Shown in pieces: positions 1,787 to 25,909 of a DNA stretch of 28,796 bases. The stretch lies in contig JBIOZG010000038.1 in NCBI GenBank assembly GCA_044870765.1, positions 1 through 28,796 of the forward strand. The letters run 5' to 3'. How positions within the stretch are numbered: position 1 is the stretch's first letter; every line of letters starts with the position of its first letter. The notes beneath the pieces are model-generated. The model was not told the DNA's origin. It was given only the letters and a program-made list of their open reading frames with translations, and did not search any database. Origin of the DNA: Nitrososphaeraceae archaeon (GTDB lineage: Archaea > Thermoproteota > Nitrososphaeria > Nitrososphaerales > Nitrososphaeraceae). The translations under genes were made by a program, and so were the position numbers.

Positions 1787-2914
1787 TCATTTGATACTGC
1801 TGGCCCTCTTATTATGGTGTAGTCTTGATGTGTGAAAAAGAGCCCTATTGTAAATTTCTATACATGTTAGATACGATTGTATCTCCACTCTTTCGTCCTT
1901 TGAATGTGAAACATGTGGTTCACCTGGTCCGTAAGTCACAACTGGTATATTTAGTGAATTTCCAAGCACATTCATATCCCCCGTTCCTGTCTTTTTTAGT
2001 AGTATGGGACGTATTTTACAAACGTCTAATATTGATAATGAAAGAGCTCTGACTATTGGTGATGAATGATCGGCTTCGAAGGGTTCTGTCATGTCCTCAA
2101 TTCGATAGGTAACTTTCACTTTCCGTATTTCCGAAATTTTCTCTATAGATTTGTCCAGGGAATCCAAGACTTCCAGGCACTTTACTCCGTTTGGTACTCT
2201 AATGTCAATGGTAATCTTACATTTTTGAGGTGTAACATTATGACTTGAACCGCCTGAAATTTCGGTGAGACTGAGAGTTACAGATTCACTCTTTTTATCA
2301 GTCTTGTTATATTTGGATGAAATTTCGTTACTAAGTATCTTCCACACTTCATATGCTTCTTCAATAGAATTCTTTGATAGCCACGGTGCGCTTGCATGAG
2401 CACTGTCAATGACATCGCAGGTAAGTCTTAAGGCGAGTCTTCCTTTATACGCTACAGTAATCTTATTAATTCCACTTGGTTCGCCAAAAATCGCGTAGTC
2501 AACGGACAACTTATTTTTGACCAATTCCTTAATTCCAGTAGCGTTCCCTTCCTCATCTACGACTCCCGCAAAAATTATCGTTCCACTTTGCTTGAATTCC
2601 GAGCACGCAAGAAGCATGGATATGAGTGGAGCTTTTGCATCTGAGGCTCCTCTGCCAAAAAGATATCCCGAATCAATCCTAACTGGTATCTGTCCTGGTA
2701 CAGTGTCCATATGTCCGCATAAGAGGATTTTTGGATCTCCACTTCCTTTAGTTGCTATCACATTTCCCACACTATCGATACTAACTCTTTCAAATCCTAA
2801 ATCATCCAAACATTTTTGCTTAATCAAGTTGGCAAGCTGTGCTTCTGATCTTGACGGTGTGTATATTTCAAGAGCCTTTTTTAATAATTCAATGGCATAC
2901 GCAGAAGAGATCAA
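1787..2914 (-). CDS. lysK: [LysW]-lysine/[LysW]-ornithine hydrolase (M20 family, LysK/ArgE-like)
   Basis: GHMDTVPG, GRGASDAK, DEEG, FGEPS and HSKDE M20 metal ligands; lies in the lysW cluster; TTG start. Confidence 0.9.
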   Translation of the reverse strand: MISSAYAIELLKKALEIYTPSRSEAQLANLIKQKCLDDLGFERVSIDSVGNVIATKGSGDPKILLCGHMDTVPGQIPVRIDSGYLFGRGASDAKAPLISMLLACSEFKQSGTIIFAGVVDEEGNATGIKELVKNKLSVDYAIFGEPSGINKITVAYKGRLALRLTCDVIDSAHASAPWLSKNSIEEAYEVWKILSNEISSKYNKTDKKSESVTLSLTEISGGSSHNVTPQKCKITIDIRVPNGVKCLEVLDSLDKSIEKISEIRKVKVTYRIEDMTEPFEADHSSPIVRALSLSILDVCKIRPILLKKTGTGDMNVLGNSLNIPVVTYGPGEPHVSHSKDERVEIQSYLTCIEIYNRALFHTSRLHHNKRASSIK

Positions 2915-2923
2915 TTTTGCTAA

Positions 2924-3793
2924 TTACTTATTCGAGTTTACAAGATGATCTATAATAAGAGAAGGAATATCAACTTCAGTAACCCTTACAGTATTCTTGA
3001 ATTCTGTAGTATTGTTTACTTCATGAACAAGCAAACCATTATCATCACTTTCCATTAGATCTACTCCCAAAATCTCCCCTTTCATGGTCTTTGCTGCTCT
3101 TAAACAAATATCTTCCATTTCGTTGGTTACTTTACAGGTTTCTGCCTTTCCACCAAGCGCCATATTTGTTTTCCATTCATTGTTTCCGGAGTATCTGTAG
3201 ATTGCAGCGACCACTTTATCTCCAACTACTATGCTTCTAATGTCTCTAGGGGGTCTTTTCACAAACTCCTCAAAATAAAATACATGATAAAGTGGGTACA
3301 TATGTTCTCTGTCCTCAATCACCGCTTCCGCTGCCTCTTTATCCTTCAATAGCGCTATCATCCTTCCCCAACTGCCTACTACAGGTTTGATAACCTTTGG
3401 ATAACCGTTCTTATCTAGGATACTCATAGCAGATTGATTCGAAAATGCACAATAAGCTTTGGGAATGGCTATCCCTGATTTTGACAATTCCATATGAGTG
3501 AACAATTTATTTCCGCACATTATGGCGGTATAAAGAGAGTTAATCACTTTTGCTCCAAGTCCCTCAAAAGCAGCAGTCGAATGCAGATTATTATAATAGC
3601 TCACACATCTCTGCAAGATAATGTCGTCGCAATAGATGGATTTATCCTTGTCGAGCTCAATCGAATTTTCTCTACAATTGATAACCTCTAGATTGATATC
3701 TCTTTTTTTCGCAGTTTCGATTAACGATTTTTCTTCCCATCTTAGTTGATCATAAAGAATGAAAAAGGAAGTTTTGTTTTTATTCCCTTTCAC
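2924..3793 (-). CDS. lysX: Alpha-aminoadipate--LysW ligase (RimK-family ATP-grasp)
   Basis: RWEEK, KPVVGSWGR, RDIR, WKTNMALGG and EVNNTTEFKN motifs; directly follows hcs-lysW1. Start placed at GTG 3793 (GTGA overlap with the lysW1 stop); the ORF track uses TTG 3802. Confidence 0.9.
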   Translation of the reverse strand: MKGNKNKTSFFILYDQLRWEEKSLIETAKKRDINLEVINCRENSIELDKDKSIYCDDIILQRCVSYYNNLHSTAAFEGLGAKVINSLYTAIMCGNKLFTHMELSKSGIAIPKAYCAFSNQSAMSILDKNGYPKVIKPVVGSWGRMIALLKDKEAAEAVIEDREHMYPLYHVFYFEEFVKRPPRDIRSIVVGDKVVAAIYRYSGNNEWKTNMALGGKAETCKVTNEMEDICLRAAKTMKGEILGVDLMESDDNGLLVHEVNNTTEFKNTVRVTEVDIPSLIIDHLVNSNK

Positions 3794-3957
3794 TCTCCCC
3801 AATCCTCTCCGACAGACTGTGCAGGTCTGATGGCGAACCCATCGTTTGACTTGATTAATTCATAACTTGCGCCGCAATCAGGACACGTCACAATTTCGTT
3901 TTCCATGGCATCACTGGGAATTTTGATTTCTGCATCGCATTCAGTACATTTTATCAT
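3790..3957 (-). CDS. lysW: Amino-group carrier protein LysW (copy 1, canonical EDWGE end), 55 aa
   Basis: Manual translation MIKCTECDAEIKIPSDAMENEIVTCPDCGASYELIKSNDGFAIRPAQSVGEDWGE*; two CxxC pairs; AGGAG ribosome-binding site at 3964-3968. Below the ORF-track size cut-off. Confidence 0.96.
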   Translation of the reverse strand: MIKCTECDAEIKIPSDAMENEIVTCPDCGASYELIKSNDGFAIRPAQSVGEDWGE

Positions 3958-3968
3958 TACTATCTCCT

Positions 3969-5162
3969 CTACTTTGATAATGCATCGTTAAGTATTTTTC
4001 TTTCTAATCTTTCGTCAAGGTATAATTCCAATATATCACCCATACGTAATTCTTTCAAACCTTTGGCCATTTTTTCGGCCTCAACTTTTGAAGATTCAAG
4101 TCCCAAAAGAGAAAGCAAATATGCTGCGCCATTTTTTCCTGCAAGCTCACCAAAGACTATTTTTCTCCTGTTTCCCACTAAATGAGGTTCAAGGATTTCA
4201 TATGCCGATGGATTCTGCAAAATGGCAGCTAGGTGCGTACCTGCCTTGTGTTTATAAGCACTTTCTCCAACTATTGGCTTGGATTCTGGTGTTTCAATAT
4301 GTGTGTAATCTACAATTGTTCTTGAAAGATCTTTTAACATGTGCAATCTAAAATCATTTGGCATTCCATAAATGACGGATAAAGCGACTGCTGTCTCGGC
4401 TAGGGATGGAATTCCTGTTCTTTCACCAAACCCATCTATGGTTGTGTGAATTTGATTGGCTCCAGCTTCGCATCCTGCAAGTGCATTAGCGAGTGCAAGG
4501 CCTACATCATTATGGCAATGTACGTCTAGCGATGAAATACTTGTGTCAATATTATCATGTACCATCTTTACCAGGTTGTACATCCCTTGCGGGCGCATTA
4601 TTCCTACAGTATCCGGAATACTTATTCTTTCGATTCCTCGAGAATTCATTTCTTTGCACATTTCAATCAGAAATAATGGATCCGTTCTGCTTGCGTCTTC
4701 CATTGTAAAACGAGATTTCAATCCATGTGATTTTATAAAGTCCGCAACTTCAAGAGCTCTAACTTTGGCTTCTTCTCTCGAGATTTTCAACTTTGTGGCA
4801 AGATGGATGTCCGAGATTCCCATATATGTTGCGACCCATGTTGCATTACAGTCAATTGCGACTTCTACATCTGATTTTAGGGCTCTCACATGAGCCAAAA
4901 TGTCTGCCTTCAGCCCTTGTTTGATAATTGTCTTGGTCGCTTCGAAATGGTCATGCGATACAACGGGACTTATTTCGATTTGGTTCACACCAAACGAATC
5001 TAATAGCCAGGCAATCTGTATTCTTTGTTTAATTGTAAACGAAACTCCAGGATGCTGCTCTCCTTCACGCAGTGTTGAATCAAGTATCCTTATCTCCTTA
5101 TTCGTTATTGTTTTATTGTACATGTTCGCAAAATGGTTAGGATCATCTGAAATTAGTGACAT
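3969..5162 (-). CDS. hcs: Homocitrate synthase (LeuA/DRE-TIM family)
   Basis: DSTLREGEQ, IPDTVG, HCHNDVG, GFGERTG and HKAGTH motifs; lacks the long LeuA regulatory tail. Specificity is inferred from its position before lysW-lysX-lysK. Confidence 0.82.
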   Translation of the reverse strand: MSLISDDPNHFANMYNKTITNKEIRILDSTLREGEQHPGVSFTIKQRIQIAWLLDSFGVNQIEISPVVSHDHFEATKTIIKQGLKADILAHVRALKSDVEVAIDCNATWVATYMGISDIHLATKLKISREEAKVRALEVADFIKSHGLKSRFTMEDASRTDPLFLIEMCKEMNSRGIERISIPDTVGIMRPQGMYNLVKMVHDNIDTSISSLDVHCHNDVGLALANALAGCEAGANQIHTTIDGFGERTGIPSLAETAVALSVIYGMPNDFRLHMLKDLSRTIVDYTHIETPESKPIVGESAYKHKAGTHLAAILQNPSAYEILEPHLVGNRRKIVFGELAGKNGAAYLLSLLGLESSKVEAEKMAKGLKELRMGDILELYLDERLERKILNDALSK

Positions 5163-5227: not shown

Positions 5228-5650
5228 CTAGGTAAGCGTTCTCAATATTATCACTGTATCCGTATTTGACACTCCCTGTATTCTTCTTATTTCGTCAATA
5301 CTACTATTAATTTCGTTTATAGAGTCTGCTGATATAATCACGGCTACATCATATTGTCCAGTTATTTCATAAATAACCTTAACACCATCGATGTCTTGCA
5401 ATTTAGAAGCAACTGAATTTGTGTCAGTTGTGGAGCTGACAGAAAGCAAAGTTATTGCGCTAGTTTTCTTGCTAGAATTTTCTTCAATCGTAAATCTCGA
5501 TATTATCCCATTATCAATTAAATTCTTAATCCTTCGTCTTATTGCAGATTCCGATAATCCCAGCTCCTTCCCAATATCTACAAATGATTTTCTAGAATCC
5601 ACTCGCAAAATCTCTAAGATTCGCTGGTCAAATTCATTTTCTTTGGACAT
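5228..5650 (-). CDS. lysM: Lrp/AsnC-family transcriptional regulator LysM
   Basis: DQRILEILRVDSRKSFVDIGKELGLSESAIRRRI HTH and YEITGQYD RAM-domain motif; start taken at ATG 5650, overlapping the end of lysJ. Confidence 0.88.
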   Translation of the reverse strand: MSKENEFDQRILEILRVDSRKSFVDIGKELGLSESAIRRRIKNLIDNGIISRFTIEENSSKKTSAITLLSVSSTTDTNSVASKLQDIDGVKVIYEITGQYDVAVIISADSINEINSSIDEIRRIQGVSNTDTVIILRTLT

Positions 5651-6824
5651 TACGCCTCTTCTCCTCTTCACTTAAGATATCATCCATTATTTCAACAGCT
5701 CTGCTCACTTGCTCCTTCTTCATAACTAAAGGTGGAAGTAGCCGAATTACTGTTCTTCCAGAGTATAACATCAAAAGCCCATTTTTTATTCCATCCATCA
5801 ATATATCTCTGACATCGAACCGTGATTCTAAGGCAAGCATCATTCCCATGCCTCTGACATCTCTTATTATGGGATGCTTTTCCTTCAATTCAATGAGCTT
5901 ATCTTTGAAATACCTTCCTGTGTCTGAGGCTCTTGAGGGCAAGTCTTTTTTTATTATTGTGTCAATCGTGGCACTTCCTGCCGAGCACGCAATCGGATTT
6001 CCAGCAAAGGTTGAAGAATGTTCTCCTACGTTCATACAGTTGGCAATTTCCTCCTTAACAAATGTTACACCAGCAGGAACTCCAGAAGCCACTCCCTTTG
6101 CTACACACATTATATCAGGAACAGCGTTCCAATTTTGGCCGGCCCACATTTTTCCTGTTCGTCCAAGCCCGGTCTGAATTTCGTCAAATATCAACACTAG
6201 GTTTTTTTCTGTACATACTTCTCTTACTGCCTTCACATAATCTTCTGGCGGCATAATTATGCCAGATTCCCCTTGAATTGGTTCGACGATCACAGTACCA
6301 ATACTTTCATCTATGGCATCCGTAAGAGAAGATATATCTCCAAAAGGAACGAATTTTACTCCATCTAACAAAGGATTGAACGACTTACGATATTTTGCGT
6401 TATACGTGACAGACAGTGCACCAAACGTTTTCCCGTGATAACCACCATACATGGAAATAACCCCATTTTTTTGTGAAAATTTTCGTGAGAATTTTAATGC
6501 AGCCTCTATAGATTCAGCTCCACTATTACTAAAGAAAATCTTCCCGAGGTTATCAGGTGATATAGATTTTAACTTTGACAGAAATTCTAGTCTGCTATCA
6601 TTGTAGGTAGACATATGGCATACCATGATCCTGTTTATTTGCAATGTTATTGCATTAATGACATCTCTATTGCAATGTCCTATGATAGCGACCCCATATC
6701 CGCCCATACAGTCAATGTATTCCTTTCCTGATGTGTCCCAAATTGTTGCATCTTGGGCTCTATCGATAGTAACAGGAAATCTTTGATATAGATTTATCAA
6801 AAATGCGTCTTCATTGAGATTCAA
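5634..6824 (-). CDS. lysJ: [LysW]-aminoadipate semialdehyde/glutamate semialdehyde transaminase (LysJ/ArgD)
   Basis: Class-III PLP motifs NSGAES, YHGKT, EPIQGESG, FDEIQTGLGRTG, AKG and STFAGNP; start taken at TTG 6824 (TTGA overlap with the lysZ stop). Confidence 0.9.
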   Translation of the reverse strand: MNLNEDAFLINLYQRFPVTIDRAQDATIWDTSGKEYIDCMGGYGVAIIGHCNRDVINAITLQINRIMVCHMSTYNDSRLEFLSKLKSISPDNLGKIFFSNSGAESIEAALKFSRKFSQKNGVISMYGGYHGKTFGALSVTYNAKYRKSFNPLLDGVKFVPFGDISSLTDAIDESIGTVIVEPIQGESGIIMPPEDYVKAVREVCTEKNLVLIFDEIQTGLGRTGKMWAGQNWNAVPDIMCVAKGVASGVPAGVTFVKEEIANCMNVGEHSSTFAGNPIACSAGSATIDTIIKKDLPSRASDTGRYFKDKLIELKEKHPIIRDVRGMGMMLALESRFDVRDILMDGIKNGLLMLYSGRTVIRLLPPLVMKKEQVSRAVEIMDDILSEEEKRRNVQRK

Positions 6825-7621
6825 TTCGAGATCACCGTACAATTTGTATGATTTATTGCTGACATAATCGGGTTAGATATCTTCCCTGACGATATTATCA
6901 CTTCTTTAGCCCCTATCAATAGGGCTTCTGTGCTAGCCAATATCTTTTTTTCCATTCCAAATCCTATTTTCGGCAACTGCTCTTTTGCCTCATCTCTGGT
7001 AAGTTTTTTCACCAGTTTGTCTTCTAAATGTAAGCCGTTTACATTAGTTAAAAAAATGACCTTATCTGCCTTTAGATTTCCGGCTATGTAAGCAGCGGCC
7101 CTGTCGCCATCGACATTTAAAAATTCATATTCTTCGCTCATTGCTATTGGGGATACCACAGGAACAAAGCCTCTTTCAGTGAGAGTGTACAAAAGAGACG
7201 TTTCAACAGAATTTATTTTTCCAGTATATCCCCCTTCAATAATCATTTTTCGCCCTTTTTCATTTAGCACTGTCAGCTTTGTTTTTCTTACTGCCTTCAA
7301 CATGTTATCATCTATTCCGGAAATCCCCACCGCTCTTATGCCTCCCTGGACTAGCATTCTGACAATTATCTTGTTTATTTTTCCAGACATTACCATAGTG
7401 TAAATTTCAGCCGTTTCCTTATCGGTGAATCTACTTCTTATTCCACTGGGAGAAACGATAAATTTCTGTTCCTTTCCAAGCTTTGTAGCGACATTGGTTA
7501 CTTCATTTCCTCCACCATGAATCAGTACTAGTTTCTCTTTTTGCGAAATTTGGCGAATATCATCAATTATTGATGGATGCAATTCATAGAGAACACTTCC
7601 ACCAAACTTTATGACAATCAT
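6821..7621 (-). CDS. lysZ: [LysW]-aminoadipate/[LysW]-glutamate kinase (LysZ/ArgB)
   Basis: IVIKFGGS, HGGG, SPSGIRSRFTD, LNVDGDRAAA and GMEKK motifs of LysZ-type kinases. Confidence 0.92.
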   Translation of the reverse strand: MIVIKFGGSVLYELHPSIIDDIRQISQKEKLVLIHGGGNEVTNVATKLGKEQKFIVSPSGIRSRFTDKETAEIYTMVMSGKINKIIVRMLVQGGIRAVGISGIDDNMLKAVRKTKLTVLNEKGRKMIIEGGYTGKINSVETSLLYTLTERGFVPVVSPIAMSEEYEFLNVDGDRAAAYIAGNLKADKVIFLTNVNGLHLEDKLVKKLTRDEAKEQLPKIGFGMEKKILASTEALLIGAKEVIISSGKISNPIMSAINHTNCTVISN

Positions 7622-8670
7622 ACCGGTGTTAATGGTGTATACCTGAGTCCATCAGTTTCACTGAACCCGCACATTAGATTCATGTTCTGCACGGCAGAAC
7701 CTGCAGCTCCCTTCATTAAATTATCCGAGGCTGAAAGTGCAACTATTCGGTTTGTGTTTTCATCCATATCGAAACCCACATCACAGAAATTAGAACCTAC
7801 AACGAATTTTGGATCAGGGAATTTATAGAATCCCTTTTTATCTCTTATTAGTCGAATGAAGGGTTCTTCCTTATACGAATTTCTATAAACCTTCCATAGT
7901 TCAAGCTCTGACATTGGTGAATTAAGAAATACATGATTTGTTGTTAATATTCCCCTTACTAGATTTACGGCATGAGGACTCATACTCACTTTAATTTTCT
8001 CACCTGATAGGATGCTTAATTCTTGTTCTATTTCACCTGTGTGTCTGTGTTTTGCGGGTTTATATGGTCTTATCACCCCATATCTCATTGCATGATGGGT
8101 TCCCGCGCTGTCATTCGAACCCGCGCCAGAAGAGCCTATTTTACTATCTACAATAATATGATCAGTATCAATCAATTTATTTTCAATTAATGGCTTTAGC
8201 GCCAAAATTGAGGTTACTGCCATGCACCCAGGACATGATACTAATTGTGCATCTTTGATTTTATTTCTATGAATCTCCGGAATGCCGTAAACTGATTTGG
8301 AAAGTAAATCAGGATAAGGATGTTCCCAACCATACCATTTTACATAATCGTCTGCATTCTTCAAACGGAAATCTGCTGATAGATCTACAATCTTTATTCC
8401 TGTACTGTATAATTCCTTGACTATGTTTAATGCGTTACCATGAGGAACAGATACAAATATCAAATCACATTGTTTTGTTAATTTGTCCAATTCCATCGAC
8501 GAGAATGTTAGATTTATGAAACCTTTCAAACTGGGATGTATTCTGTGGACGTACTCTCCTGCGTTCTGCCTAGAAGTTAAAACACTTAATTCAACATCCG
8601 GATGAACTACTAGCAACCGTAATAGTTCACCACCAACATATCCCGAAGCGCCGATTACTCCTACTTTCAT
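7618..8670 (-). CDS. argC: [LysW]-aminoacyl-phosphate reductase (ArgC/LysY)
   Basis: GASGYVGGEL, DLSADFR, catalytic PGC, HRHTGE, RGIL and DNLMKGAAGSAVQNMN motifs. Confidence 0.94.
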   Translation of the reverse strand: MKVGVIGASGYVGGELLRLLVVHPDVELSVLTSRQNAGEYVHRIHPSLKGFINLTFSSMELDKLTKQCDLIFVSVPHGNALNIVKELYSTGIKIVDLSADFRLKNADDYVKWYGWEHPYPDLLSKSVYGIPEIHRNKIKDAQLVSCPGCMAVTSILALKPLIENKLIDTDHIIVDSKIGSSGAGSNDSAGTHHAMRYGVIRPYKPAKHRHTGEIEQELSILSGEKIKVSMSPHAVNLVRGILTTNHVFLNSPMSELELWKVYRNSYKEEPFIRLIRDKKGFYKFPDPKFVVGSNFCDVGFDMDENTNRIVALSASDNLMKGAAGSAVQNMNLMCGFSETDGLRYTPLTPV

Positions 8671-8787: not shown

Positions 8788-9648
8788 TTATTTTGTGGAT
8801 AATTTTACCAAATAGTCTGTAATTGCTCCGGCTATGTCAGACTTACATACGGTCGATGCTCCTCTAAATTCTACAGTATTGTTCAGCTCATGCACCAAAT
8901 AGCCTCTTTGTTTATCTTCCATGAGATCTACTCCCAAGATTCCGCCTCCTACAGCGCTTGAAGCTTTTAGGACAATCTCTTGTAATTCTGCTGTCATTGG
9001 GGCCTCTTCTGTTCTGCCACCAACAGCTACATTTGTTCTCCATTCATTTTCTGAAGAGTATCTATACACCGAGGCTACTATTTGATCTCCTATAACAATG
9101 CATCTAATATCACGTGAAGGACGATCAACTAATTCCTGGAAATAGTAGATTCTAGAAAATGAATTATCGTTATCTTGTCTTGAATCCAACAACATTTCAG
9201 CCATTGATTGATCTTTTATTTGGTAAACACCACGACCCCATGAACCAATAATTGGTTTAACTACCAGCGGATATCCAAGATTTTTCATACACTCTCTTGC
9301 TGACTCCGTACTAAAGGCAAAAGTAGTTTTGGGAGTTGGCACATTATTCTTTTTCAAAACCATAGAGGTGATTAGCTTGTTCCCGCAAATTTCGCCGACA
9401 TTGAATGTATTTACAACAGAGAAGCCTATTTGTTCCAGACAGTAAGTTAAATGTAAGCCCCTGTTATGGCTTATAACTCGCTGTAATATAATATCGCCAA
9501 ACGAAAGATTGTGTTTCCTTGATTCGGTATCAAATGTTATTAATTTCCCGTCTACTAATGTTGCGTCTAATCCTTTTTCTTTGACCTTGCTGTATATTTT
9601 TTTTTCTTCAAATCTTAGTTTGTCATATATTATGCATATTGTATTCAA
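8788..9648 (-). CDS. argX: Second LysX/ArgX-family ATP-grasp ligase, probable glutamate--LysW ligase
   Basis: RFEEK, KPIIGSWGR, RDIRCIVIG, EWRTNVAVGG and ELNNTVEFRG motifs; lies between argG-lysW2 and argC. The family is clear; the ArgX specificity is inferred from context and recalled motif similarity. Confidence 0.8.
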   Translation of the reverse strand: MNTICIIYDKLRFEEKKIYSKVKEKGLDATLVDGKLITFDTESRKHNLSFGDIILQRVISHNRGLHLTYCLEQIGFSVVNTFNVGEICGNKLITSMVLKKNNVPTPKTTFAFSTESARECMKNLGYPLVVKPIIGSWGRGVYQIKDQSMAEMLLDSRQDNDNSFSRIYYFQELVDRPSRDIRCIVIGDQIVASVYRYSSENEWRTNVAVGGRTEEAPMTAELQEIVLKASSAVGGGILGVDLMEDKQRGYLVHELNNTVEFRGASTVCKSDIAGAITDYLVKLSTK

Positions 9649-9822
9649 CTATTGTCCCCAGTCTTCCCCGACTGATTCGGCTTGTTTCATCTCCACACTA
9701 TTCTGAGTCTTTGATACTATCTCAAAGTCGGTGCCGCAGTCTGGACATGTAATGATTTCTCCAACCATCGCGTCTTCCGGTATGGTCAATTCAGCTCCAC
9801 AATCCTTACATTCTTTTTTCAC
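9649..9822 (-). CDS. lysW: Amino-group carrier protein LysW/ArgW (copy 2, ends EDWGQ), 57 aa
   Basis: Manual translation from GTG 9822: MKKECKDCGAELTIPEDAMVGEIITCPDCGTDFEIVSKTQNSVEMKQAESVGEDWGQ*; two CxxC pairs; AGGAG upstream; its stop abuts the ligase TTG start. Not in the ORF track. Confidence 0.95.
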   Translation of the reverse strand: MKKECKDCGAELTIPEDAMVGEIITCPDCGTDFEIVSKTQNSVEMKQAESVGEDWGQ

Positions 9823-9828: not shown

Positions 9829-11034
9829 TTATCTCCTTTTCTCTTTTGATAAGTTCTTTGATAATTTATTAGCAATAACTGTTTCCATCCCCCATAACTC
9901 TATAAAACCCTTTGCAAGGTTTTGGTCGAATACAGAGTCTGAAGCATATGTCGCCAACGTCTGTCTGTAAAGTGAATTCTTGGATTTTCTTCCCACTACT
10001 CTGAAAGATCCATTTTGCAATTTCATTTTAACTTTTCCTGAAACTCTATTTTGAGTTGCATCTATAAACCTATCCAAGTCTTCTCTAAGAGGATCAAACC
10101 ATAACCCGGAATAAACCATCCAACTCCACTTATCTTCCACCAATTGCTTGAAACTTAATTCATGTTGAGTCAGAACAAGTTGTTCCAGATCTTTGTGGGC
10201 TGCGAGGATAGTCTGAGCTGCAGGGGCTTCGTATATTTCCCTTGTTTTTATTCCGACTACTCTGTCTTCTATGTGGTCTACTACACCAACTCCGTGTTTA
10301 CCGGCTTTAACATTCAAATATCTAATAATGTCCAACAAACTCATTTTTTTATTGTCAACTCCCACTGGCGTGCCTTTCTCAAATTGTATTTCTAAATATT
10401 CAGGCGGTATCATCTTATTCTTGACCAAACTAAAAATTTCTTCTGGAGGTTCTTTCCAAGGATCTTCTAGTTGACCTGCTTCGATAGCTCTTCCCCATAT
10501 ATTTGTGTCAGTGCTATACTTTTTAATTTCATCATTTAGTGGAACATTATTTTTTTTTGCGTATGCTAGTTCACGATCCCGTGTCAAATTCATTTCCCTT
10601 ATTGGTGCAATTATCTTGATAGTTGGATCAATTGATGACATTGCAATATCAAACCTAACCTGGTCGTTTCCCTTTCCCGTGCACCCATGTGCAACTGCAG
10701 TTGCACCTTCTTGCGCGGCAACTTCCATTATTTTCTCCGCAATCAATGGACGAGCTAGAGCAGTAGCAAGAGGATATTTTCCTTGATAGAGACCGTTTGC
10801 CCTAATTGATCTGTATACATATTTCTCTACAAACTCTTTTTTTGCATCGACGTTGATATGCTTTATAGCACCAAGCATCTTTGATTTTTTTCTAATTGCA
10901 TCAAAGTCATCTTCTTGACCGCAGTCAACGGTGGTCGTAATTACATCCATTTTCTGCTTATTTTGCAGATATTTTACGCATACTGATGTGTCCAAACCAC
11001 CAGAGAAAGCTAATACAACTTTTTTATTGGACAT
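9829..11034 (-). CDS. argG: Argininosuccinate synthase
   Basis: VVLAFSGGLDTS, YPLATALARP, HGCTGKGNDQVRF and EDRVVGIKTREIYEAP motifs; start taken at ATG 11034 (MSNKKVV). Confidence 0.97.
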   Translation of the reverse strand: MSNKKVVLAFSGGLDTSVCVKYLQNKQKMDVITTTVDCGQEDDFDAIRKKSKMLGAIKHINVDAKKEFVEKYVYRSIRANGLYQGKYPLATALARPLIAEKIMEVAAQEGATAVAHGCTGKGNDQVRFDIAMSSIDPTIKIIAPIREMNLTRDRELAYAKKNNVPLNDEIKKYSTDTNIWGRAIEAGQLEDPWKEPPEEIFSLVKNKMIPPEYLEIQFEKGTPVGVDNKKMSLLDIIRYLNVKAGKHGVGVVDHIEDRVVGIKTREIYEAPAAQTILAAHKDLEQLVLTQHELSFKQLVEDKWSWMVYSGLWFDPLREDLDRFIDATQNRVSGKVKMKLQNGSFRVVGRKSKNSLYRQTLATYASDSVFDQNLAKGFIELWGMETVIANKLSKNLSKEKRR

Positions 11035-11140
11035 TACTAATGCAACCCATATCATAATCGACTTATATTTTTTGGTTAATCTCAGAAACATGGTTGTGAA
11101 AATGAAAACTATTAAAACCATACGTGATCAATAACTTCGT
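11035..11140. promoter_or_regulatory. Divergent promoter region (argG operon / HTH regulator)
   Basis: Minus-strand AAAAAATATAAG about 27 nt before the argG ATG; plus-strand GAAAAC-TATTAAAA (11104-11117) about 24 nt before ATG 11141. Both spacings fit leaderless archaeal transcripts. Confidence 0.55.
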
Positions 11141-12363: not shown

Positions 12364-12397
12364 TGGCATTATATCAAGGATTGAATGTATTTACAAG

Positions 12398-12471
12398 TGG
12401 GCCGAAAGGGATTTGAACCCTCGGCCTTTCGATTATCAGTCGAACGCTCCGCCAAGCTGAGCTATCGGCCC
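12398..12471 (-). tRNA. tRNA-Ile(GAT)
   Basis: GGGCCGATAGCTCAGCTTGGCGGAGCGTTCGACT-GAT-AATCGAAAGGCCGAGGGTTCAAATCCCTTTCGGCCCA folds as a cloverleaf; no intron; CCA not encoded. Confidence 0.97.
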
Positions 12472-12568
12472 ATAAATCGAATTAATATGACGATATTTAT
12501 TCGTGTGGATATGAAAACGACGGACAAAAATGCATTTAAGTCATGCAGCAAACTATCTAACTTGTTAA

Positions 12569-13390
12569 TTGGTACCTCGGATAAAAAATGTCGCTATTGT
12601 CACAAAAATTAAAAATGACTTGGCAAAAAATGCCGCTCGAAATGTTGCAAAGTTTCTGGATGAAAAAAAGGTTAAGGTATTCTCAATAGAACAACTTGGT
12701 GCTAATAATAATGTTCATCTAGTTAATCCTTCCGCGCTTGCCAAAACCGATCTTGATCTAGTTTTTGCCATAGGGGGAGATGGTACGACTCTGCGTGCCT
12801 TTAGAATAATAAATAAAAGTACACCGGTTTTCAGCCTAAATATAGGAGGAACCAGAGGGATATTGGCAGAGGCTAATACAAAACCAATTGACCAACAGTT
12901 GCAGGATATTTTCAATGGAAAATATTTCTATGATAAAAGACTACGATTGCAGGCAAATATTGATGGAAAAATGGTTGGCGCCGCACTCAACGACATAGTT
13001 ATAACAAGGACAAATTTGACCAAGACTCCTGTTGTTACTATTAAAGTACTCGATTACCCTATATCACAGAAAATGGATGGAGTTATAATTTCTACTCCTA
13101 CAGGTTCAACTGGACATGCTCTTTCTTTAGGTGGACCTATAGTTCATGAGAATATGAAATGTGTCATGATATTACCAATTGCCCCCGTTAACAAGACACC
13201 AGCACTGATTGTTGATATAAATGATATTGTTATCAGTTCTACTGACAGCTCAAAGATAATTATTGACGGTCAACAGGTTTTTGACTCGAAGTGGAAAAGT
13301 AACATCGCCATCTCTAGATATCCATATGATGGAGTATTCCTACGGATTGGTAAAAGGGGTATAAGGCAGCTTGAAAAACTTGGATTCTAG
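12569..13390 (+). CDS. nadK: NAD(+)/NADH kinase
   Basis: GGDGTTL, ALND and DGVIISTPTGSTGHALSLGGP motifs; TTG start. Confidence 0.94.
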   Translation: MVPRIKNVAIVTKIKNDLAKNAARNVAKFLDEKKVKVFSIEQLGANNNVHLVNPSALAKTDLDLVFAIGGDGTTLRAFRIINKSTPVFSLNIGGTRGILAEANTKPIDQQLQDIFNGKYFYDKRLRLQANIDGKMVGAALNDIVITRTNLTKTPVVTIKVLDYPISQKMDGVIISTPTGSTGHALSLGGPIVHENMKCVMILPIAPVNKTPALIVDINDIVISSTDSSKIIIDGQQVFDSKWKSNIAISRYPYDGVFLRIGKRGIRQLEKLGF

Positions 13391-13892
13391 AGCAGAATCA
13401 AAATTTGCCTTGGACGCAACAGCATTTTACCAGGGATTTCATTTGAAGTCCAAAAGTACTTGCATTACATCAGATTTAGTATTTGACGAGATTTCCCATA
13501 TTCAAAGGAATCTTTCAATTTTGGACACTTTGGTATCAAATAGGAGAATCATGATATTTGAGCCTGATATTATGTCATTGAGATTGGTCCGAGATGCTGC
13601 AAAACAAACGGGGGAAGAGAGACTTACTGATGCTGATATTTCAATCCTTGCTCTTGCGAAAGGTAATGATGCAACACTAGTTACCGATGACTTTGCTGTC
13701 TGTAATCTTGCAAACATTTTGTCAATTAAATTACTTAACTTAGGAACAAAGGGTATTAGGGAGACAAGAAAATGGGTTAAGTTTTGCAAAAGTTGTGGAA
13801 GAGGGTATGCGCCAAAGCATACGATCTGTGCTATTTGTGGTAACAAGTTGAGTATTCGATATAAAAAAATGACAAAATCAGAAATTACTTAA
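13371..13892 (+). CDS. nob1: Nob1-family PIN endonuclease with zinc ribbon (rRNA maturation)
   Basis: PIN acidic residues in LDATAF, VFDEI, LTDADISILALA and VTDDFAV; CKSC...CAIC zinc ribbon. Confidence 0.88.
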   Translation: MKNLDSRAESKFALDATAFYQGFHLKSKSTCITSDLVFDEISHIQRNLSILDTLVSNRRIMIFEPDIMSLRLVRDAAKQTGEERLTDADISILALAKGNDATLVTDDFAVCNLANILSIKLLNLGTKGIRETRKWVKFCKSCGRGYAPKHTICAICGNKLSIRYKKMTKSEIT

Positions 13893-13926
13893 TTAGAATT
13901 GGGTGATGATGTCATTATTTGAGTAC

Positions 13927-15123
13927 CTAATTCACATGAATGACGTTTGGATTTAGGATCTTTATGTATATTGAATTTGTATTTTTTTCACTATGGTCAT
14001 GGATAATTTTTGAATCGTTTCCAAATTTTTTGATATAAGCAGTGATGATTAATATCCAAGGTACAATTGATTTTTCCTTCGAGTCAAAATGAAGTTTTAG
14101 CATATTGTTTTGGGGTTCATAGTTTAGATACCCTGAGTAGCTTATCTTTAGGGCTGAATCTACGATACGTATTATGTCATCAATACTTTGACAGGTTATG
14201 TCACTACTAAATTTTTCAATCTCACCAATTAATGATGAATAATTACTATCTTCCTTGATTGACAAGTCTAGTAATATTTGTGTAAGATCATCTTCTACCA
14301 ATTTAGACAAAATTATTGCCTCCTTTGGGATCCTGTTACCCAGTAAACTAGGATTTATTCTAAGAGCTTTTTTCCATTTCTCGTCAAATAATTTGATATA
14401 AGAATTACCAAATGCATCCGGTGTCAATATTAGAGATGCCTTTCCATTGGTACTGTCGATGAAAATTATTTTTTTGAAATCGAAAATTATTATATTCCCA
14501 GAAACATTGTCCGACCTAACTTCTACTCCGGTTGGAAACGTTACATCATTGTCATTAGCAAAAGATTGAATACCAAGTAGAATATTGATTTTTATACCTC
14601 TTTTAACGGCCTCTGTCAAAGAAGCTTTAGATTGAAAGACAACATTTTGTCCCCATGAGTCCAGAATAAAGTCAATATTTGATTTGGTTGAAGAAACTAG
14701 TTCTTCAATTTTTTGCACGACTGCGTTAGGTTCGAGAACCAGGTACTTTTTTTCTTCATATGGCTTTTTTCCCTCATCTCTCAATTTCTTCAGACTATTC
14801 AAAATGGTATGCATCGACGCCAATCTCCCTTGTTGCATAGTAATTAGCTCACCGAAAGCTTCGTCAGGCGGTGTTGCTGTGGCTATCATTGGTTTCTGAC
14901 TTGAAATTGTTGAAAGCTTTTTTCTTTCTAATTTTTTTAAAGTCGTGTAAATCTTTGTTCGAGGAACATTCGAATAATAGGCTATCTCACTTGCTCCTAA
15001 TGTTCCTTTTGAAACCAATGTGATATATGCCATAGACTCATATTTTGATAGCCCGAATTCTTCAAGATTCGCTACGAGATCCAGGTAATTTGGTATATCA
15101 TCAGGACGTTTAATCATGAGCAC
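13927..15123 (-). CDS. TrmB-family transcriptional regulator
   Basis: LEEFGLSKYESMAYITL...ASEIAYYSNVPRTKIYTTLKKL TrmB HTH, then an effector-like domain (AVKRGIKINILL). The start may be ATG 15117. Confidence 0.88.
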   Translation of the reverse strand: MLMIKRPDDIPNYLDLVANLEEFGLSKYESMAYITLVSKGTLGASEIAYYSNVPRTKIYTTLKKLERKKLSTISSQKPMIATATPPDEAFGELITMQQGRLASMHTILNSLKKLRDEGKKPYEEKKYLVLEPNAVVQKIEELVSSTKSNIDFILDSWGQNVVFQSKASLTEAVKRGIKINILLGIQSFANDNDVTFPTGVEVRSDNVSGNIIIFDFKKIIFIDSTNGKASLILTPDAFGNSYIKLFDEKWKKALRINPSLLGNRIPKEAIILSKLVEDDLTQILLDLSIKEDSNYSSLIGEIEKFSSDITCQSIDDIIRIVDSALKISYSGYLNYEPQNNMLKLHFDSKEKSIVPWILIITAYIKKFGNDSKIIHDHSEKNTNSIYIKILNPNVIHVN

Positions 15124-15457
15124 TTTTTTTTAAATATGGACGTAAAGCAGGATGTCAATTTGATTGGACAAAAGATAAGAAAATTTAAAAGCTGAATATG
15201 GCAACACAACCTAACGTCTATGAATATGCTCACAATGAGGTTTTGTCCTATCGCCTCACAAGCACAAATTTATCAATTAAGAACTTCCAAATCAAATGCA
15301 AAACATTATTTTGAGATAATATTATTGAAATTTTTCTTGTCTTTTTCACAGATTTTTGATAATTTTTCTTAGTCTTTGTTCAATTTATTTTGTTCCTTGA
15401 CCAATATAGATTCACAATGTATTACTTCAAAGAAATACTCAGAGTTTTAGTGATTAT

Positions 15458-16687
15458 ATGAGTTTAGCTCCACAGGAACTAGAGAATAGTGCCAGTAAAT
15501 ACGCAGCTGAAGCAATTAGATTGGACTCGGAGGGTTCCAATGGACATGCAATTAGTGCTTATCAACGAGCAGTTGAAGCGTTGGTAAAGTTGGTGCAAAT
15601 CTATCCTGATTACAAGTTGAATAAAATTTACATGGAGAGGGCAAATTCCTATAGAAATAGAATCAAGGCCCTGCAGATGTCTAATTCATTATATGACTCT
15701 GAAATCAACAAGAGAGGACAATTTGATCAGAAATCAGTAAATTCAACGAATTCAATTCTTAACAATATACGTACTTCAAAGAAGACGAACGGACCCAACG
15801 GGGGATTCAGTTTGGACTTTGAAGAATTACTTATGACTGACAAACCGAAGGTAACATGGAACGAAGTAATTGGTTTAGATGATGCCAAGAGAGCTATGAG
15901 GGAATCCATAGTCTATCCGACTATAAGACCAGATCTGTTGCCACTGGGCTGGGCAAGGGGAATTTTGTTGTTTGGACCTCCTGGTTGTGGAAAGACTTTA
16001 CTTGCAGCAGCAGCAGCGGCCGAAATTGATGGATATTTCATTAATGTTGACGCCGCTTCGATGATGAGCAAATGGCTGGGCGAGGCAGAAAAAAATGTTT
16101 CAAAATTATTTTCCATGGCGCGCAAGTTACATGATAGTGAGGGTGTTCCTGTCTTGATTTTTGTTGATGAAATAGATTCTCTTTTGGGAAATAGAAACAG
16201 CGAAGTGGGAGGCGAAGTCAGGGTAAAAAATCAATTCCTTACCGAGATGGATGGCATAAACGGGAAATCAAGAGAATCAAAACTATATGTTATTGGTGCA
16301 ACTAACAAACCTTGGAGCTTGGAGGCAGGTTTTCTTAGAAGATTTCAAAAGAGGATTTATGTTTCGCTTCCCGATAGAGCTTCTAGAATCAACCTTTTTG
16401 GTCAGTATACTACAAGATTGCAAATGGAATCTTCATTGAAAATTGAAGATCTTGCAAAGTTATCAGAAGGTTACAGTGGCAGTGACGTCAAGGACATATG
16501 CCAATCTGCTCAACTGCGAGTCGTAGACGAGCTATTTCAAAGCGGCAAGGGGCTGGATAGTGATGCAAGCACACGATCAATTACTGAATCAGATTTTAAA
16601 GAAATTCTAAAGATGAGAAAGCCTAGTGTCAGTGTGGATATGATTCGGGCATACATGAGATGGAGCGAACAGTTTAAAGCTCTCTAG
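15458..16687 (+). CDS. cdvC: Vps4/CdvC AAA+ ATPase with N-terminal MIT domain
   Basis: MIT-like helices (AAEAIRLD...YQRAVEAL...YRNRIKAL), Walker A GPPGCGKT, pore loop SKWLGE, Walker B FVDE, ATNKPW, RRFQKR and C-terminal FKAL. Confidence 0.9.
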   Translation: MSLAPQELENSASKYAAEAIRLDSEGSNGHAISAYQRAVEALVKLVQIYPDYKLNKIYMERANSYRNRIKALQMSNSLYDSEINKRGQFDQKSVNSTNSILNNIRTSKKTNGPNGGFSLDFEELLMTDKPKVTWNEVIGLDDAKRAMRESIVYPTIRPDLLPLGWARGILLFGPPGCGKTLLAAAAAAEIDGYFINVDAASMMSKWLGEAEKNVSKLFSMARKLHDSEGVPVLIFVDEIDSLLGNRNSEVGGEVRVKNQFLTEMDGINGKSRESKLYVIGATNKPWSLEAGFLRRFQKRIYVSLPDRASRINLFGQYTTRLQMESSLKIEDLAKLSEGYSGSDVKDICQSAQLRVVDELFQSGKGLDSDASTRSITESDFKEILKMRKPSVSVDMIRAYMRWSEQFKAL

Positions 16688-17223
16688 TTTGATTTTCCCT
16701 TTTCGTAACTCTCAATAGCCTGAGTAATTTTTTCTAGTGCCGATTCCTTACCTTCCCAACCTGAAATCTTTACAAATTTCCCTTTCTCTAATTCTTTGTA
16801 ATGTTCAAAGAAGTGTTTTATTTGGTCTTTCAAATACTGGGGTATGTTTTCGATATCACGAATAGCAGAGAAACTCGGGTCAATTTTCGACGTCGGTACA
16901 GCCACTATTTTTGAATCATGACCTTCTTCATCTTCAGTCTGCAGTACGCCTACTGGTATCACTCTAATTAGAGATAATGGCGCCAAGGGCGATTCTCCCA
17001 GTACGAGTACATCAACAGGATCTCCATCTTTTTCCAGTGTGTTTGGTAAAAATCCATAATTGCACGGATAATACATTGCTGTAAACAATCTCCTGTCTAC
17101 TTTGATAAAACCGCTTTTGGTGTCAAATTCATATTTTATATTACTGCCCTTGGGGATTTCTATAATTGCTGAACACTCATCAGGCGATTGCTTGATAGAC
17201 CCAATTCCTTGATTTGTTGTCAT
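16684..17223 (-). CDS. ppa: Inorganic pyrophosphatase (family I)
   Basis: IEIPKGSNIKYE, YPCNYG, DGDPVDV and HFFEHYKELE motifs. Confidence 0.97.
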   Translation of the reverse strand: MTTNQGIGSIKQSPDECSAIIEIPKGSNIKYEFDTKSGFIKVDRRLFTAMYYPCNYGFLPNTLEKDGDPVDVLVLGESPLAPLSLIRVIPVGVLQTEDEEGHDSKIVAVPTSKIDPSFSAIRDIENIPQYLKDQIKHFFEHYKELEKGKFVKISGWEGKESALEKITQAIESYEKGKSN

Positions 17224-17385
17224 GCTATTTTGTTATTTGGTGCTATTTATATTCGAAAAGGTTCCCGTTAAATAATGAATTTACCATTTGTAATGATCAT
17301 TGACCCAAAATTGAATTTTTTCAGATTATTTATTTTGAATTTTGATAAAATTATAAAAGAGTGAAAAGAACTGACGTTCGCATTA

Positions 17386-20300
17386 ATGAAACTGGGCCCA
17401 AAATATGATCCAAAAGAAATAGAATCTGAAATCAATTCGTATCTTGAACGAATTGATCAGCGATCATTAATTGAAAATGAATTGTTATCCCGCGAGAAAA
17501 TTGGATATGTTGAGGGACCCCCTACGCTTAATGGTGAACCGCACATTGGACATTTGCGAGGAAGGATCATAAAGGATCTTTGGTACAGATACAAGACCCT
17601 GCAAAAAAATAGAGTGGAATTTCGAGCAGGATGGGATACTCAAGGCTTACCAGTTGAATTACAGGCAGAGAAGAATCTAGGACTAACTGGAAGTAAAGCA
17701 GAGAATATCAAAAAAGTTGGCATTTCAAGAATTGTTGAAGAATGTAAGGATCTAATTAAAAAGAACGCCGAAAAATGGATTAAAGTTGATTCTCTCCTTG
17801 CCATGTCGTTTGATTATGAAAAAGCATACTGGACCTATAAAGACACGTATATCGAAAGGGAATGGCAGATCCTCAAAAAGGCATGGGAACTGGGCATTCT
17901 TAAAGAATGGTTTAGAGTAGTTGCATATTGCCCTTCATGCCAAACTTCTTTAAGCAACGCTGAAGTTAATCAGGGATACAAAATTGTCGAGGATCCCTCT
18001 TTTTATTACAAGATGAGATTAAAGGAAGAGAACACTTTTTTAGTCGTATGGACTACAATGCCCTTCACTTTAGTAACAGATGAGTTAATAGGTGTCAATC
18101 CAGACTCTGAATATGTCTACATATCTGTCGAAAAGGAAACATGGATTGTTGGATATGATAGGTTAAATGATTTGATGAATGCATTTGGGATTCAGAAATT
18201 CAGAGTCGAAAGGGTGGTAAAAGGCATCGAACTTGATGGCAAAAGATATGTTCACCCATTATTAGAATCAATTCCGGGGCTCAAGGAGCTAAGTGATGAC
18301 AACAAGATACATTTTGTAGTCGCGGAAAATTTCGTAGATGCTACTACCGGAAGCGGAGTAGTGCATCTGTCTCCAGCCAATGGTCAAGAAGATTTTGATA
18401 TAGCCGTCAAACGAAATGTTCCAATTTTTGTACCTATAAACGACAATGTTGAATTCACCGAAGCCGCTGGTATTTTTAGGGGCCAGTTTGTTCGGGATTC
18501 TGACCTTCTGGTAGTAGACAAAATGAAAGAAGCTGGAGGATACTTGAAGTTGAGCAAGATCAAACATCAGTATCCAACGTGCTGGAGGTCGAATCACAAG
18601 GTTGTTTGGCTTGCAAGGAGAGAATATTTTTACATAATAGATAAACTTGGAAATAAACCAATAACTGCTATTTCTAATGTTAATTTCTTTTTTGACTCAC
18701 CAAAAAATAGGTTCTCAGAAATAATAAAGGAACAAGTACCATGGTGCATATCCCGGGAAAGAGTATGGGGCACTCCTCTTCCAATATGGAGCTGCAATAG
18801 GTGCGGGAAGAAAGAACCTTTATTTTCTAGAGATGAAATTATCAAAAGGGCATCAAAGTTACCGGATGGAGAACGATTCGAATTGCATAGGCCCTGGATA
18901 GATAATATCGAAATTAATTGTTCCAAATGTAGTAACATAATGAATCGAGAACCATTTGTTCTTGATACTTGGCACAACAGTGGCGCGTCGCCCTATGCAT
19001 CATTTTCCGATGAAGAATACAAGGATCTAATACCAGCCGCATTTTTGACAGAAGGAATAGACCAAACAAGAGGGTGGGCATACACATTACTGATGGAGAA
19101 CGTAATAATGACAAATGAGGCTAGACCGCCTTTTCAATCGTTTCTATTTCAAGGTCATATCTTGGATGAAAAAGGAAATAAAATGAGTAAGAGTCTGGGT
19201 AATGTGTTGGATGCAAACGATCTCTTGATTAAAAATTCCGTGGATGCGATTAGATTTTATTTTATGTGGAAATCTTCTCCCATTGAATCGTTAAGTTTTA
19301 GCCTAAGTGAAATGGGTTCTAGGCCATATCAAGTGCTTAGTACCCTCTATTATCTGCATATCTACCTAATGCAAAATGGAACATATGACAAATTTGACTC
19401 TAGAATAATCGACATAGATTCAGTCATGAAGAGCAATAATTTTACAATGACTGAATCCTGGATTTTATCAAAATTGCAAACGATGATCAAAACAGTAACA
19501 ACACAATTAGATTCTTGCAGATTTAATGAAGCCGCAAAAAATATAGAAGAATTCATAATCAATGATCTCAGTCAAACTTATGTTCCGATGACTAGGGATG
19601 ATATATGGGACGACAGCCTAGAGACCATAGATCGAAGAAACGTAATTTATGCAGTACTTGGATTTACATTATCTCAAATTGACATAATTCTTCATGTATA
19701 TTGTCCATTCATTACAAATTATTTGTATTTGATCTGTTTCAAGAATAAAGATATGGTTTTGCTGGAAAATTGGCCGATCTTTAACGGTAAATTAGTAGAC
19801 GTTAATGCTGAACAGACAATAGACAAGGCAAAAAATATTATTTCTATAGTTAATGCCGCGAGGATGAAAGCGAAATTTAAGAGGAGATGGCCCGTTAACA
19901 ATGTTATCATATTAGCTCAGGATACGAATCTTCTAGAATCAAATGAATTATTAGAAATATTGAAGAAACAGCTCAATACCGTCTCACTTAACATTAAAAC
20001 CTTAGATTTTAGTAATTTTCTTGCAAAAATCAATAGACTATATCGAGAGAAACTGGTTTCCTTAAATGCAAAGCTCAAGATAAATAAAATTGCTCCTCGA
20101 TTAAAAAACGATCTAAATAAAGCCCTGCAGGCATTTGAGAAAATAAATTATAATGATTTATTTAACCAATTGATGTCAAAAGACAAATTCAATTTAAAGT
20201 ATGATTCTGGAGAGATTGACCTTTCAAAAGATGATGTAGAATTTACTTATACCGGAGAAACACCCTATGTCATGGTCGAATCAGATCAAGAGAATATTGC

Positions 20301-20598: not shown

Positions 20599-20740
20599 TT
20601 ATATTGTTACCAATAATTGGATTCTATGAATTAAGATCTGAATCTTCCAGACGTTATTTAATTATGCAAGAAAATTTGTAACTGCAATAATCATGTCTTT
20701 GTTAAAAGTCAAATAGTAGTTGGATTAGAACCCTTTGTCA

Positions 20741-20932
20741 TTAATTTAAATTTTGATTCGTGGCAAAATTGCCAAGGTTTTCGACATTATTAGCTGCGAT
20801 TGAATTTCGGATTAATTGATAGCTTCTATCATGACAATTACAGGAACAGAAATTTCTCAATATTTCATTCTCACTTAATAATCCTTTACAACCCCCCTGA
20901 TTATTGCAAATACATATTGGGGATTTAGGCAA
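20741..20932 (-). CDS. Small Cys-rich hypothetical protein (about 63 aa)
   Basis: PKSPICICNNQGGCKGLLSENEILRNFCSCNCHD, in an otherwise empty 418-bp gap. TTG 20932 lies about 26 nt after an AAAAATATA element; the ORF track extends it to 21007. Confidence 0.5.
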   Translation of the reverse strand: MPKSPICICNNQGGCKGLLSENEILRNFCSCNCHDRSYQLIRNSIAANNVENLGNFATNQNLN

Positions 20933-21016
20933 TAATTGTAATTTAGTGAAACTATTGTATATTTTTACTACAAAAAACATGGCAATAATTAAATTATACT
21001 TTTCCATTGTTTTTTT

Positions 21017-21358: not shown

Positions 21359-21488
21359 ATTCTCCATGTTACATTCGTAACTATTACTCAGTATCCCGAC
21401 AGGTAACCGATGGAAACAAATCGATTCAAAATAATTTGTGTTGTATTTAACGAAATACAAATAAAGCCCTAATATCGCTTCTAATCTA

Positions 21489-22805: not shown

Positions 22806-22814
22806 GTCTTATTA

Positions 22815-23123: not shown

Positions 23124-23152
23124 TTGCTATAGTATTATTCTAGTCATCTAGA

Positions 23153-24076: not shown

Positions 24077-24215
24077 TAAAAATTGTAATTTTCTTGATTC
24101 TATTAAAGAGCTTGCTTGCGTCTGTCTTATCTGGCGTCCAAACAAATGACGACTTGCCGAGGTTCATCAATTGTGAATACTTTAATAAACTGAAATGGAG
24201 TTAAAGGTGTTAACA

Positions 24216-25843: not shown

Positions 25844-25909
25844 GCTTTGCCGATGAACAAAATATGCCATTTCCAATATACATATCAAATATCATAGTCA
25901 TCTATAAAT

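Follow-up and report, generated by a model that had tools for sequence, protein, structure and literature searches.

How can an amino-group carrier protein work when the residue that should hold its cargo has no carboxyl group in its side chain? The question is raised by the LysW protein encoded at 9649..9822 (minus strand) of a 28,796-nucleotide stretch of DNA from a Nitrososphaeraceae archaeon (contig JBIOZG010000038.1), the whole of which was analysed and is called the window below. Characterised LysW carriers end in Glu and bear their cargo on its gamma-carboxyl group (PMC10433800, PMC12998189; these and the other papers cited by PMC number are quoted from the portions of their text that were accessible), and the mechanism described in Thermus, Sulfolobus, Thermococcus and Natrinema depends wholly on that group. 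The protein of the window, here called LysW-Q, ends in Gln. This ending was found in hundreds of species, which include the globally abundant ammonia-oxidising archaea and members of at least two other archaeal families. From sequence and genomic context we judge that the Q-ending LysW is a functional carrier, a natural variant conserved in hundreds of species of archaea: it lies within complete operons, several lineages have complete genomes with no other LysW, and whole families have kept it. We predict that glutamate or aminoadipate is attached to it covalently and that LysK takes the cargo off. This leaves either an unrecognised maturation step, with a Pup/Dop-like logic in primary metabolism, or a different linkage, and either outcome would alter the way in which lysine and arginine synthesis are drawn and modelled in these organisms. 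A gap-filled Nitrosopumilus model, in its accessible part, lists one lysW only, beside an argX homologue (PMC6038301).

The carrier gene and its terminal codon

The gene and the codon in question are the following:
9649..9822, minus strand: lysW/argW paralogue of the arginine module; GTG start, 57 amino acids, Zn-ribbon carrier with the tail EDWGQ
9652..9654, minus strand: last sense codon, CAA (Gln), at the position of the attachment Glu; the stop TAG comes next, at 9649..9651

The open reading frame translates as VKKECKDCGAELTIPEDAMVGEIITCPDCGTDFEIVSKTQNSVEMKQAESVGEDWGQ*, its final codons being TGG GGA CAA TAG and the protein tail SVGEDWGQ. The four Zn-binding Cys are present as two CxxC pairs (CKDC and CPDC), the protein is acidic (13 Asp/Glu vs 5 Lys), a GGAG motif lies 10 nucleotides 5' of the GTG and the TTG start of the following ligase gene (9648) comes directly after the TAG. 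LysW-Q passes PF21344 (51 bits, cut-off 27) and NF041070, the archaeal LysW/ArgW model (88.7 bits, cut-off 75, with residues 2-57 of 57 aligned), and is under the cut-off of 53.2 of TIGR01206 with 40.8 bits, as is the E-ending paralogue of the window with 36.2 bits. The gene adjoins a LysX/ArgX-type ligase inside the arginine cluster, in the same order as in relatives. Its tail reads EDWGQ in place of EDWGE, the motif whose last Glu provides the gamma-carboxyl for attachment. On sequence grounds LysW-Q is a homologue of the LysW family which departs from the functional definition of that family, the terminal Glu.

As CAA differs from GAA by one base, the codon might be put down to an error or to a neutral mutation that arose recently in this genome. 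The stretch is present in 20 public runs from 15 studies, and the contigs of four runs from four studies were compared: X5 (DNA, from a study distinct from the possible source) and the RNA libraries X15, X16 and X18 (three studies). All of them span 9649..9822, and no alternative letter occurs at 9652..9654, with 13 other variable places listed in the 1001 bases compared; these are assembled contigs, in which rare variants are invisible, and they inform on presence, not on levels, RNA libraries being able to contain DNA. Each of the 15 other genomes of the same genus has one and only one match that ends in Q, together with one or more that end in E, and the Q copy is the upstream (arginine) one in the window and in the seven of these genomes that were listed with coordinates. 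Among the best 120 homologues of LysW-Q, 103 end in EDWGQ, 15 in EDWGE and 2 have broken tails. The agreement of four runs, 15/15 genomes and 103/120 homologues rules out an error of sequencing or assembly and a recent neutral mutation, to which we give practically no credence. The preliminary description of this DNA, which took the gene to be intact from its Cys pairs, acidic surface, ribosome-binding motif and abutting stop and wanted the base at 9654 verified in the reads, is thus borne out, and the Gln is genuine. Run X5 also holds a 291-base contig (record 13) which matches only the last 34 bases of the gene (9649..9682) between flanks unlike the window, and which is probably the conserved tail from another organism.

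A Gln-ending LysW was not mentioned in the literature that we searched, and the string 'EDWGQ' was absent from those papers, the founding ones (Horie 2009, Ouchi 2013) and the supplements lying outside the search. Databases label the Q-ending proteins LysW without comment. The Gln-ending carrier, a clear LysW homologue, is apparently undescribed.

Spread and placement of the Gln ending

The codes for families (f), genera (g), genomes (G) and loci (L) used below are internal to this analysis. The genomes are samples of their groups and kin are not independent, so counts are given and no statistical tests. Unpublished genomes enter the tallies (G231, G132, G326, G282 and G364 in the class survey, G436 and G364 in the family sample), and no claim hinges on these alone.

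An EDWG[E/Q]-stop pattern was run over 401 genomes of the class, of which 380 matched; with the Q-only pattern, the number was 305 of the 401. The Q ending occurs in all 77 genomes of f1, the family of the window, in 220 of 224 genomes of f2, in 6 of 10 of f3 (all six belonging to genus g27) and in 1 of 4 of f5, and in none of the 86 genomes of the remaining 16 families of the class. The orders beyond that of the ammonia oxidisers have one LysW, E-ending, in the order lysW-ligase-argC, and the basal families of that order, f4, f6 and f10, as well as the f3 genera g33 and g41 have two LysW, both E-ending. By title, the Q-ending records belong to Nitrosopumilus, Nitrosarchaeum, Nitrosotenuis, Nitrosopelagicus, Nitrosotalea, Nitrososphaera and Nitrosocosmicus, with one metagenome-assembled genome of Nitrosocaldus. 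The class survey, the homologues and these titles confirm the earlier suggestion that other ammonia-oxidising archaea have Q-ending LysW copies.

Outside the class, in a phylum sample of 401 genomes, the Q ending was found in f29 (14/17, with 12/12 in genus g96), in f35 (9/24) and in three single genomes. Ten of the 11 non-class Q loci that were inspected are true lysW genes in argC-argB-lysW-ligase-argD...M20 clusters, the exception being L226, and all five of the genomes G446, G460, G612, G453 and G591, from other classes, have one LysW over the Pfam cut-off, which is Q-ending. A pattern scan of a contig collection returned at least 120 loci and provides no basis for a range: 13 of the 121 matches listed are chance hits in bacterial genes, and we estimate, from the pattern and the size of the collection, that more than 100 chance matches would occur in the whole of it. 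When 1.84 billion cluster representatives were searched, 129 of the best 150 matches were short proteins, of which 86 end in xxWGE, 15 in xxWGQ, 2 in other tails that are still W-G/A-E or W-G/A-Q, and 26 have truncated or unrelated tails.

Wherever a tail has the EDWG motif its last position is E or Q only, save for one poor-quality EDWGK singleton, a statement which rests on the protein searches because the genome patterns could match only E or Q. Odd tails occur in the lysine-module homologues P0215 and P0160, one carrying the motif in repeated form (EDWGQWDWGQ), the other reading EDWGK and coming from a 1-kb contig that has further unusual residues; both are likely artefacts of assembly or sequencing. 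A Jordarchaeia metagenome-assembled genome (L117, 348..5564) carries a full lysW-ligase-argC-argB-argD-M20 operon whose LysW ends in EDWGQ. This was considered as an independent conserved origin and rejected, for 6/6 of its nearest homologues (81-88% identical) end in EDWGE; it is thus a singleton of little weight, either a lone flip or an assembly error.

The distribution by module is less simple than the window suggests. In f2 all 24 Q loci examined lie in the lysine module, with a LysX-like ligase and an M20 LysK downstream and, in the 20 of 24 that reach far enough, homocitrate synthase upstream, Lrp likewise; in genus g27 all five Q-ending lysW genes found are in the lysine module too, with the same two genes downstream and homocitrate synthase and Lrp upstream where the locus extends to them. 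The arginine-module copy is E-ending in all six f2 loci and the one g27 locus retrieved. An arginine-specific Q form is refuted by these lysine-module copies: scoring the paralogues by module, as the preliminary description had proposed, upholds the wide occurrence of Q and not its attachment to the arginine module.

A second sample of the window's family comprised 81 genomes from 18 genera, 77 of which matched; modules were assigned by gene order for pairs 5.8-6.0 kb apart on one contig, and neighbours were checked. The combination found in the window, Q in the arginine and E in the lysine module, occurs in 15 genomes (g1 8/8, g10 6, g85 1) and the reverse in 6, all of genus g4, whose seventh genome, G185, is Q/Q by a one-base difference from the other six. 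A further 30 genomes are Q/Q, 25 have a single Q-ending match and one (G406, 81% complete) is E/E. The E/E exceptions inside Q-bearing families are this genome and G131 and G353, both of f2. On a FastTree phylogeny of 115 ligases, with a Lys-module clade (96% support) and an Arg-plus-single clade (99%), the terminal residue of the partner changes between E and Q at least seven times. Across f2 the last codon keeps its first base, whereas any of the four letters occurs at the third base of the Gly codon before it, from which we conclude, on codon evidence, that Q is kept by selection and not by drift. The proposal that a Gln ending ties arginine synthesis to the nitrogen status of an ammonia oxidiser is not supported by these data: the largest ammonia-oxidiser family has its Q copy in the lysine module, the ending switches from one module to the other within the window's family, and Q-ending proteins are sole carriers in other classes. 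The sequences lend no support to a particular link with arginine or with ammonia oxidation.

Only Q-ending copies are present in 55 of the 77 matched genomes of the second sample. Genus g2, which includes two one-contig genomes, has argG followed directly by the ArgX-like ligase, and its sole LysW is the Q-ending copy of the lysine module; the one-contig genomes G159 and G120 each have a single LysW, Q-ending, and two ligases, and together with G460 and G591 they are complete genomes whose sole LysW ends in Gln. These observations bear on the suggestion that LysW-Q is a non-chargeable decoy or regulator which titrates the shared enzymes. The genome of the window also has an E-ending LysW, so that for this organism the suggestion would be possible on sequence alone. 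As a general reading it is refuted by G159, G120, G460, G591 and the 55/77 family genomes, the many Q-only genomes including both complete ones and titled cultured or enriched ammonia oxidisers, which presumably grow on mineral medium. The position of the gene within the arginine operon, its stop abutting the ligase start, also speaks against a decoy, which we hold to be very improbable; even taken together with an error in the codon it accounts for hardly any of our expectation.

Partner enzymes and the loading of a Gln-ending carrier

The window contains a single long cluster on the minus strand, in which the arginine module (argG-lysW-ligase-argC-argB-argD) is followed by an Lrp-type regulator and then by the lysine module. 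Apart from lysW-Q, its pathway genes are:
9829..11121, minus strand: argG (argininosuccinate synthase), which opens the arginine module
8788..9648, minus strand: RimK-family ATP-grasp ligase, ArgX-like; signature I-V-V-GA, GSWGR present, TIGR02144 292.1 bits vs 275.6
7618..8670, minus strand: argC/lysY semialdehyde dehydrogenase, with no other close copy in the genome
6821..7621, minus strand: argB/lysZ amino-acid kinase, single-copy in the genome
5634..6842, minus strand: argD/lysJ class-III aminotransferase
5228..5671, minus strand: Lrp/AsnC-type regulator, between both modules
3969..5162, minus strand: homocitrate synthase, first gene of the lysine module
3790..3957, minus strand: second lysW, of the lysine module; 55 amino acids, tail SVGEDWGE, NF041070 86.1 bits vs cut-off 75
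2924..3802, minus strand: RimK-family ligase, LysX-like; signature I-I-M-NT, GSWGR present, TIGR02144 326.9 bits vs 275.6
1787..2914, minus strand: M20 amidohydrolase, LysK-like ([LysW]-lysine hydrolase), sole M20 homologue found in the genome

Both ligases belong to the RimK family (TIGR00768, 254.1 and 292.7 bits vs cut-off 143.4). A five-residue specificity signature of LysX-type enzymes is given as F-I-T-NS for LysX and I-Y-V-GF for ArgX in the accessible part of PMC12998189, and its positions were transferred to the window ligases through alignments with Thermus LysX. By this comparison the ligase after the Q carrier appears nearer ArgX and the other nearer LysX, in agreement with their respective neighbours, argG and homocitrate synthase. 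The ligases also matched the solved LysX-LysW and ArgX-LysW complexes in entries 5k2m, 3vpd and 3vpb. The LysK-like protein passes TIGR01902 (272.6 bits vs 163.1) and is under the cut-off of 363 of NF003367 with 275.7 bits. The genome, 96.65% complete, thus holds two LysW and two ligases against a single kinase, a single close reductase and a single M20 hydrolase, and as the last three are single-copy the downstream enzymes must serve both the E and the Q carriers.

Among the known systems, LysW/LysX of Thermus thermophilus and LysW/LysX/ArgX of Sulfolobus and Thermococcus kodakarensis are the closest in kind, sharing with the window the carrier family with its Zn-ribbon, acidic surface and EDWG tail, the GSWGR ligase family and the same kinase, reductase, aminotransferase and M20 hydrolase; as far as the accessible sources go, the difference is the Gln of the window carrier, which lacks the gamma-carboxyl. 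ArgW/ArgX of Natrinema gari likewise comprises an arginine-synthesis carrier adjoining an ArgX-type ligase in an arg operon. Its ArgW ends in EDWGE, and the E54A mutant, with the free alpha-carboxylate retained, is an arginine auxotroph according to the accessible text (PMC10433800); in the window the same residue is a natural Gln, in a gene that has been kept.

A parallel for an encoded Gln at a ligation point exists in an unrelated protein. Many actinobacteria encode Pup with a C-terminal Gln, which Dop deamidates before ligation by PafA. According to the accessible part of PMC8599861, ligation takes place at the last residue of Pup (C-terminal GGQ), for which some lineages encode Gln and others Glu, PafA ligates through a side-chain acyl-phosphate, PupQ is deamidated by Dop, and an attack of an amide oxygen on ATP is possible in that site. 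LysW resembles Pup in that the ligation residue varies between Gln and Glu from one lineage to a close relative. The two nevertheless differ in protein and in fold, with glutamine-synthetase-like enzymes in one case and ATP-grasp enzymes in the other, and a dedicated deamidase is known for Pup and none for LysW.

The explanation which we favour, tentatively and without calling it probable, is that the Gln stands for a Glu in masked form, which is unmasked no later than the first loading, as happens with Pup. The tail of LysW-Q would dock on the ligase as in an ordinary carrier, its final side chain facing ATP, and the terminal amide would be removed before or during the first loading, by a LysK-type hydrolase, by the ligase itself (a Dop-like route) or by another deamidase. 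LysK would be the natural first candidate, since it already cleaves gamma-glutamyl amide bonds on LysW. After this step ordinary LysW-Glu cycling would follow, with glutamate or aminoadipate on the gamma-carboxyl, and therefore the shared kinase, reductase, aminotransferase and hydrolase would need no change. Several observations favour one chemistry for E and Q carriers, within the same tentative reading. No alignment column separates the ligases of Q partners from those of E partners (43 vs 61), nor does any when they are grouped by lineage with a 5% tolerance (58 vs 55). GSWGR, said in the accessible part of PMC10433800 to recognise EDWGE, is present in both window ligases; the EDWG motif and the tail length are the same in E and Q orthologues; the state flips within a genus; only the isosteric E and Q occur at the last position; and the enzymes are shared. 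The failure of the Natrinema E54A carrier, whose alpha-carboxylate is free, points the same way, and Pup/Dop offers an exact precedent in its logic. Two candidate positions in the ligases were discarded. Column 58 (reference) splits the Q and E partners of Arg-module ligases and follows phylogeny, being C in LysX-like ligases regardless; position 253 (H vs N/S) splits the Q lineages of other classes, and Thermus LysX, with an E partner, also has N.

A masked Glu nevertheless meets with a number of difficulties. No deamidase was identified, and no search aimed at one, whether by phylogenetic profile or for Dop or PafA homologues, was made. The action of LysK on a plain amide would be a guess, because M20 enzymes normally require a carboxylate on the leaving group, and to our knowledge ATP-grasp enzymes are not known to activate amides. 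The long retention of Q is hard to explain if it matters in the first cycle only: f2 holds Q in the lysine module in 220/224 genomes, with E in the arginine module, and lets the third base of the adjacent Gly codon vary, a pattern which looks like selection on a state that the mature carrier still has. That no ligase signature was found is evidence of a negative kind, confounded by phylogeny, and the benefit of Q is unexplained.

The long retention, both in f2 and in g96 of another class (12/12), fits a residue that acts in every cycle, as it would if the ligase activated the only carboxylate of the Gln and joined glutamate or aminoadipate to it by a peptide bond. The model for this is RimK, which adds glutamates to the alpha-carboxylate of the terminal Glu of ribosomal protein S6: the ligases of the window are of its family, and it likewise acts on the C-terminal end of a small, acidic protein tail. 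The downstream enzymes would then act on peptide-linked cargo, LysK would be a carboxypeptidase, and Gln would stay in the mature carrier. Such loading requires no additional enzyme; the other named members of the RimK family among the model matches (RimK, CofF, MptN) are alpha-L-glutamate ligases, and M20 includes carboxypeptidases, a glutamate carboxypeptidase being among the weaker matches of the window LysK. Against it stand the absence of a ligase column that tracks the Q partner, an EDWG motif and a tail length that stay the same even though alpha loading would bring the reactive carbon two atoms closer to the backbone, and the need for one downstream enzyme set to handle both linkages in one cell. 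The Natrinema E54A carrier, as reported, fails with its alpha-carboxylate free (PMC10433800). The window acceptor is a LysW homologue, unlike S6, and both ligases are far below the S6-glutamate ligase model (NF007764, 82.8 and 96.3 bits vs 331). We regard alpha loading as rather unlikely, if still a serious contender; if it were true, many archaea, most ammonia oxidisers included, would make lysine and/or arginine on peptide-linked intermediates, and the amino-group carrier pathway would have a second regiochemistry in which LysK may serve as a carboxypeptidase, a prospect as doubtful as the loading itself. Selective retention of Q is explained neither by a masked Glu nor by alpha loading, and most genomes of two families of ammonia oxidisers retain one Q copy or more, in either module, which leaves some room for other chemistry: a transamidation catalysed by the ligase that releases the amide nitrogen as ammonia in each cycle, a cargo site at another point of the tail, or a function of the Q form unrelated to lysine and arginine synthesis. 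These are without positive evidence, and genomes with two E copies exist (G131, G353, G406). Amide chemistry in each cycle could not recur without re-amidation, because LysK leaves Glu after any cycle by the gamma route. Taken together, we consider such alternatives improbable.

Other features of the window

After lysK, at 728..1777 (minus strand), lies a 349-amino-acid gene with a tetrapyrrole-methylase domain and DUF357 (diphthine-synthase-like). The same methylase-DUF357 gene follows lysK in loci L178, L165, L133, L102, L104 and L105, which represent both large ammonia-oxidiser families, a conserved neighbourhood without an obvious connection to the pathway. A tRNA-Ile (GAU) gene lies at 12397..12471 (minus strand), and the listed open reading frame 12385..12612 (plus strand) that overlaps it is probably no gene. 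The open reading frames listed for 12569..28796 include one of 1070 amino acids at 17386..20598 and an AAA-ATPase-like one at 15458..16687.
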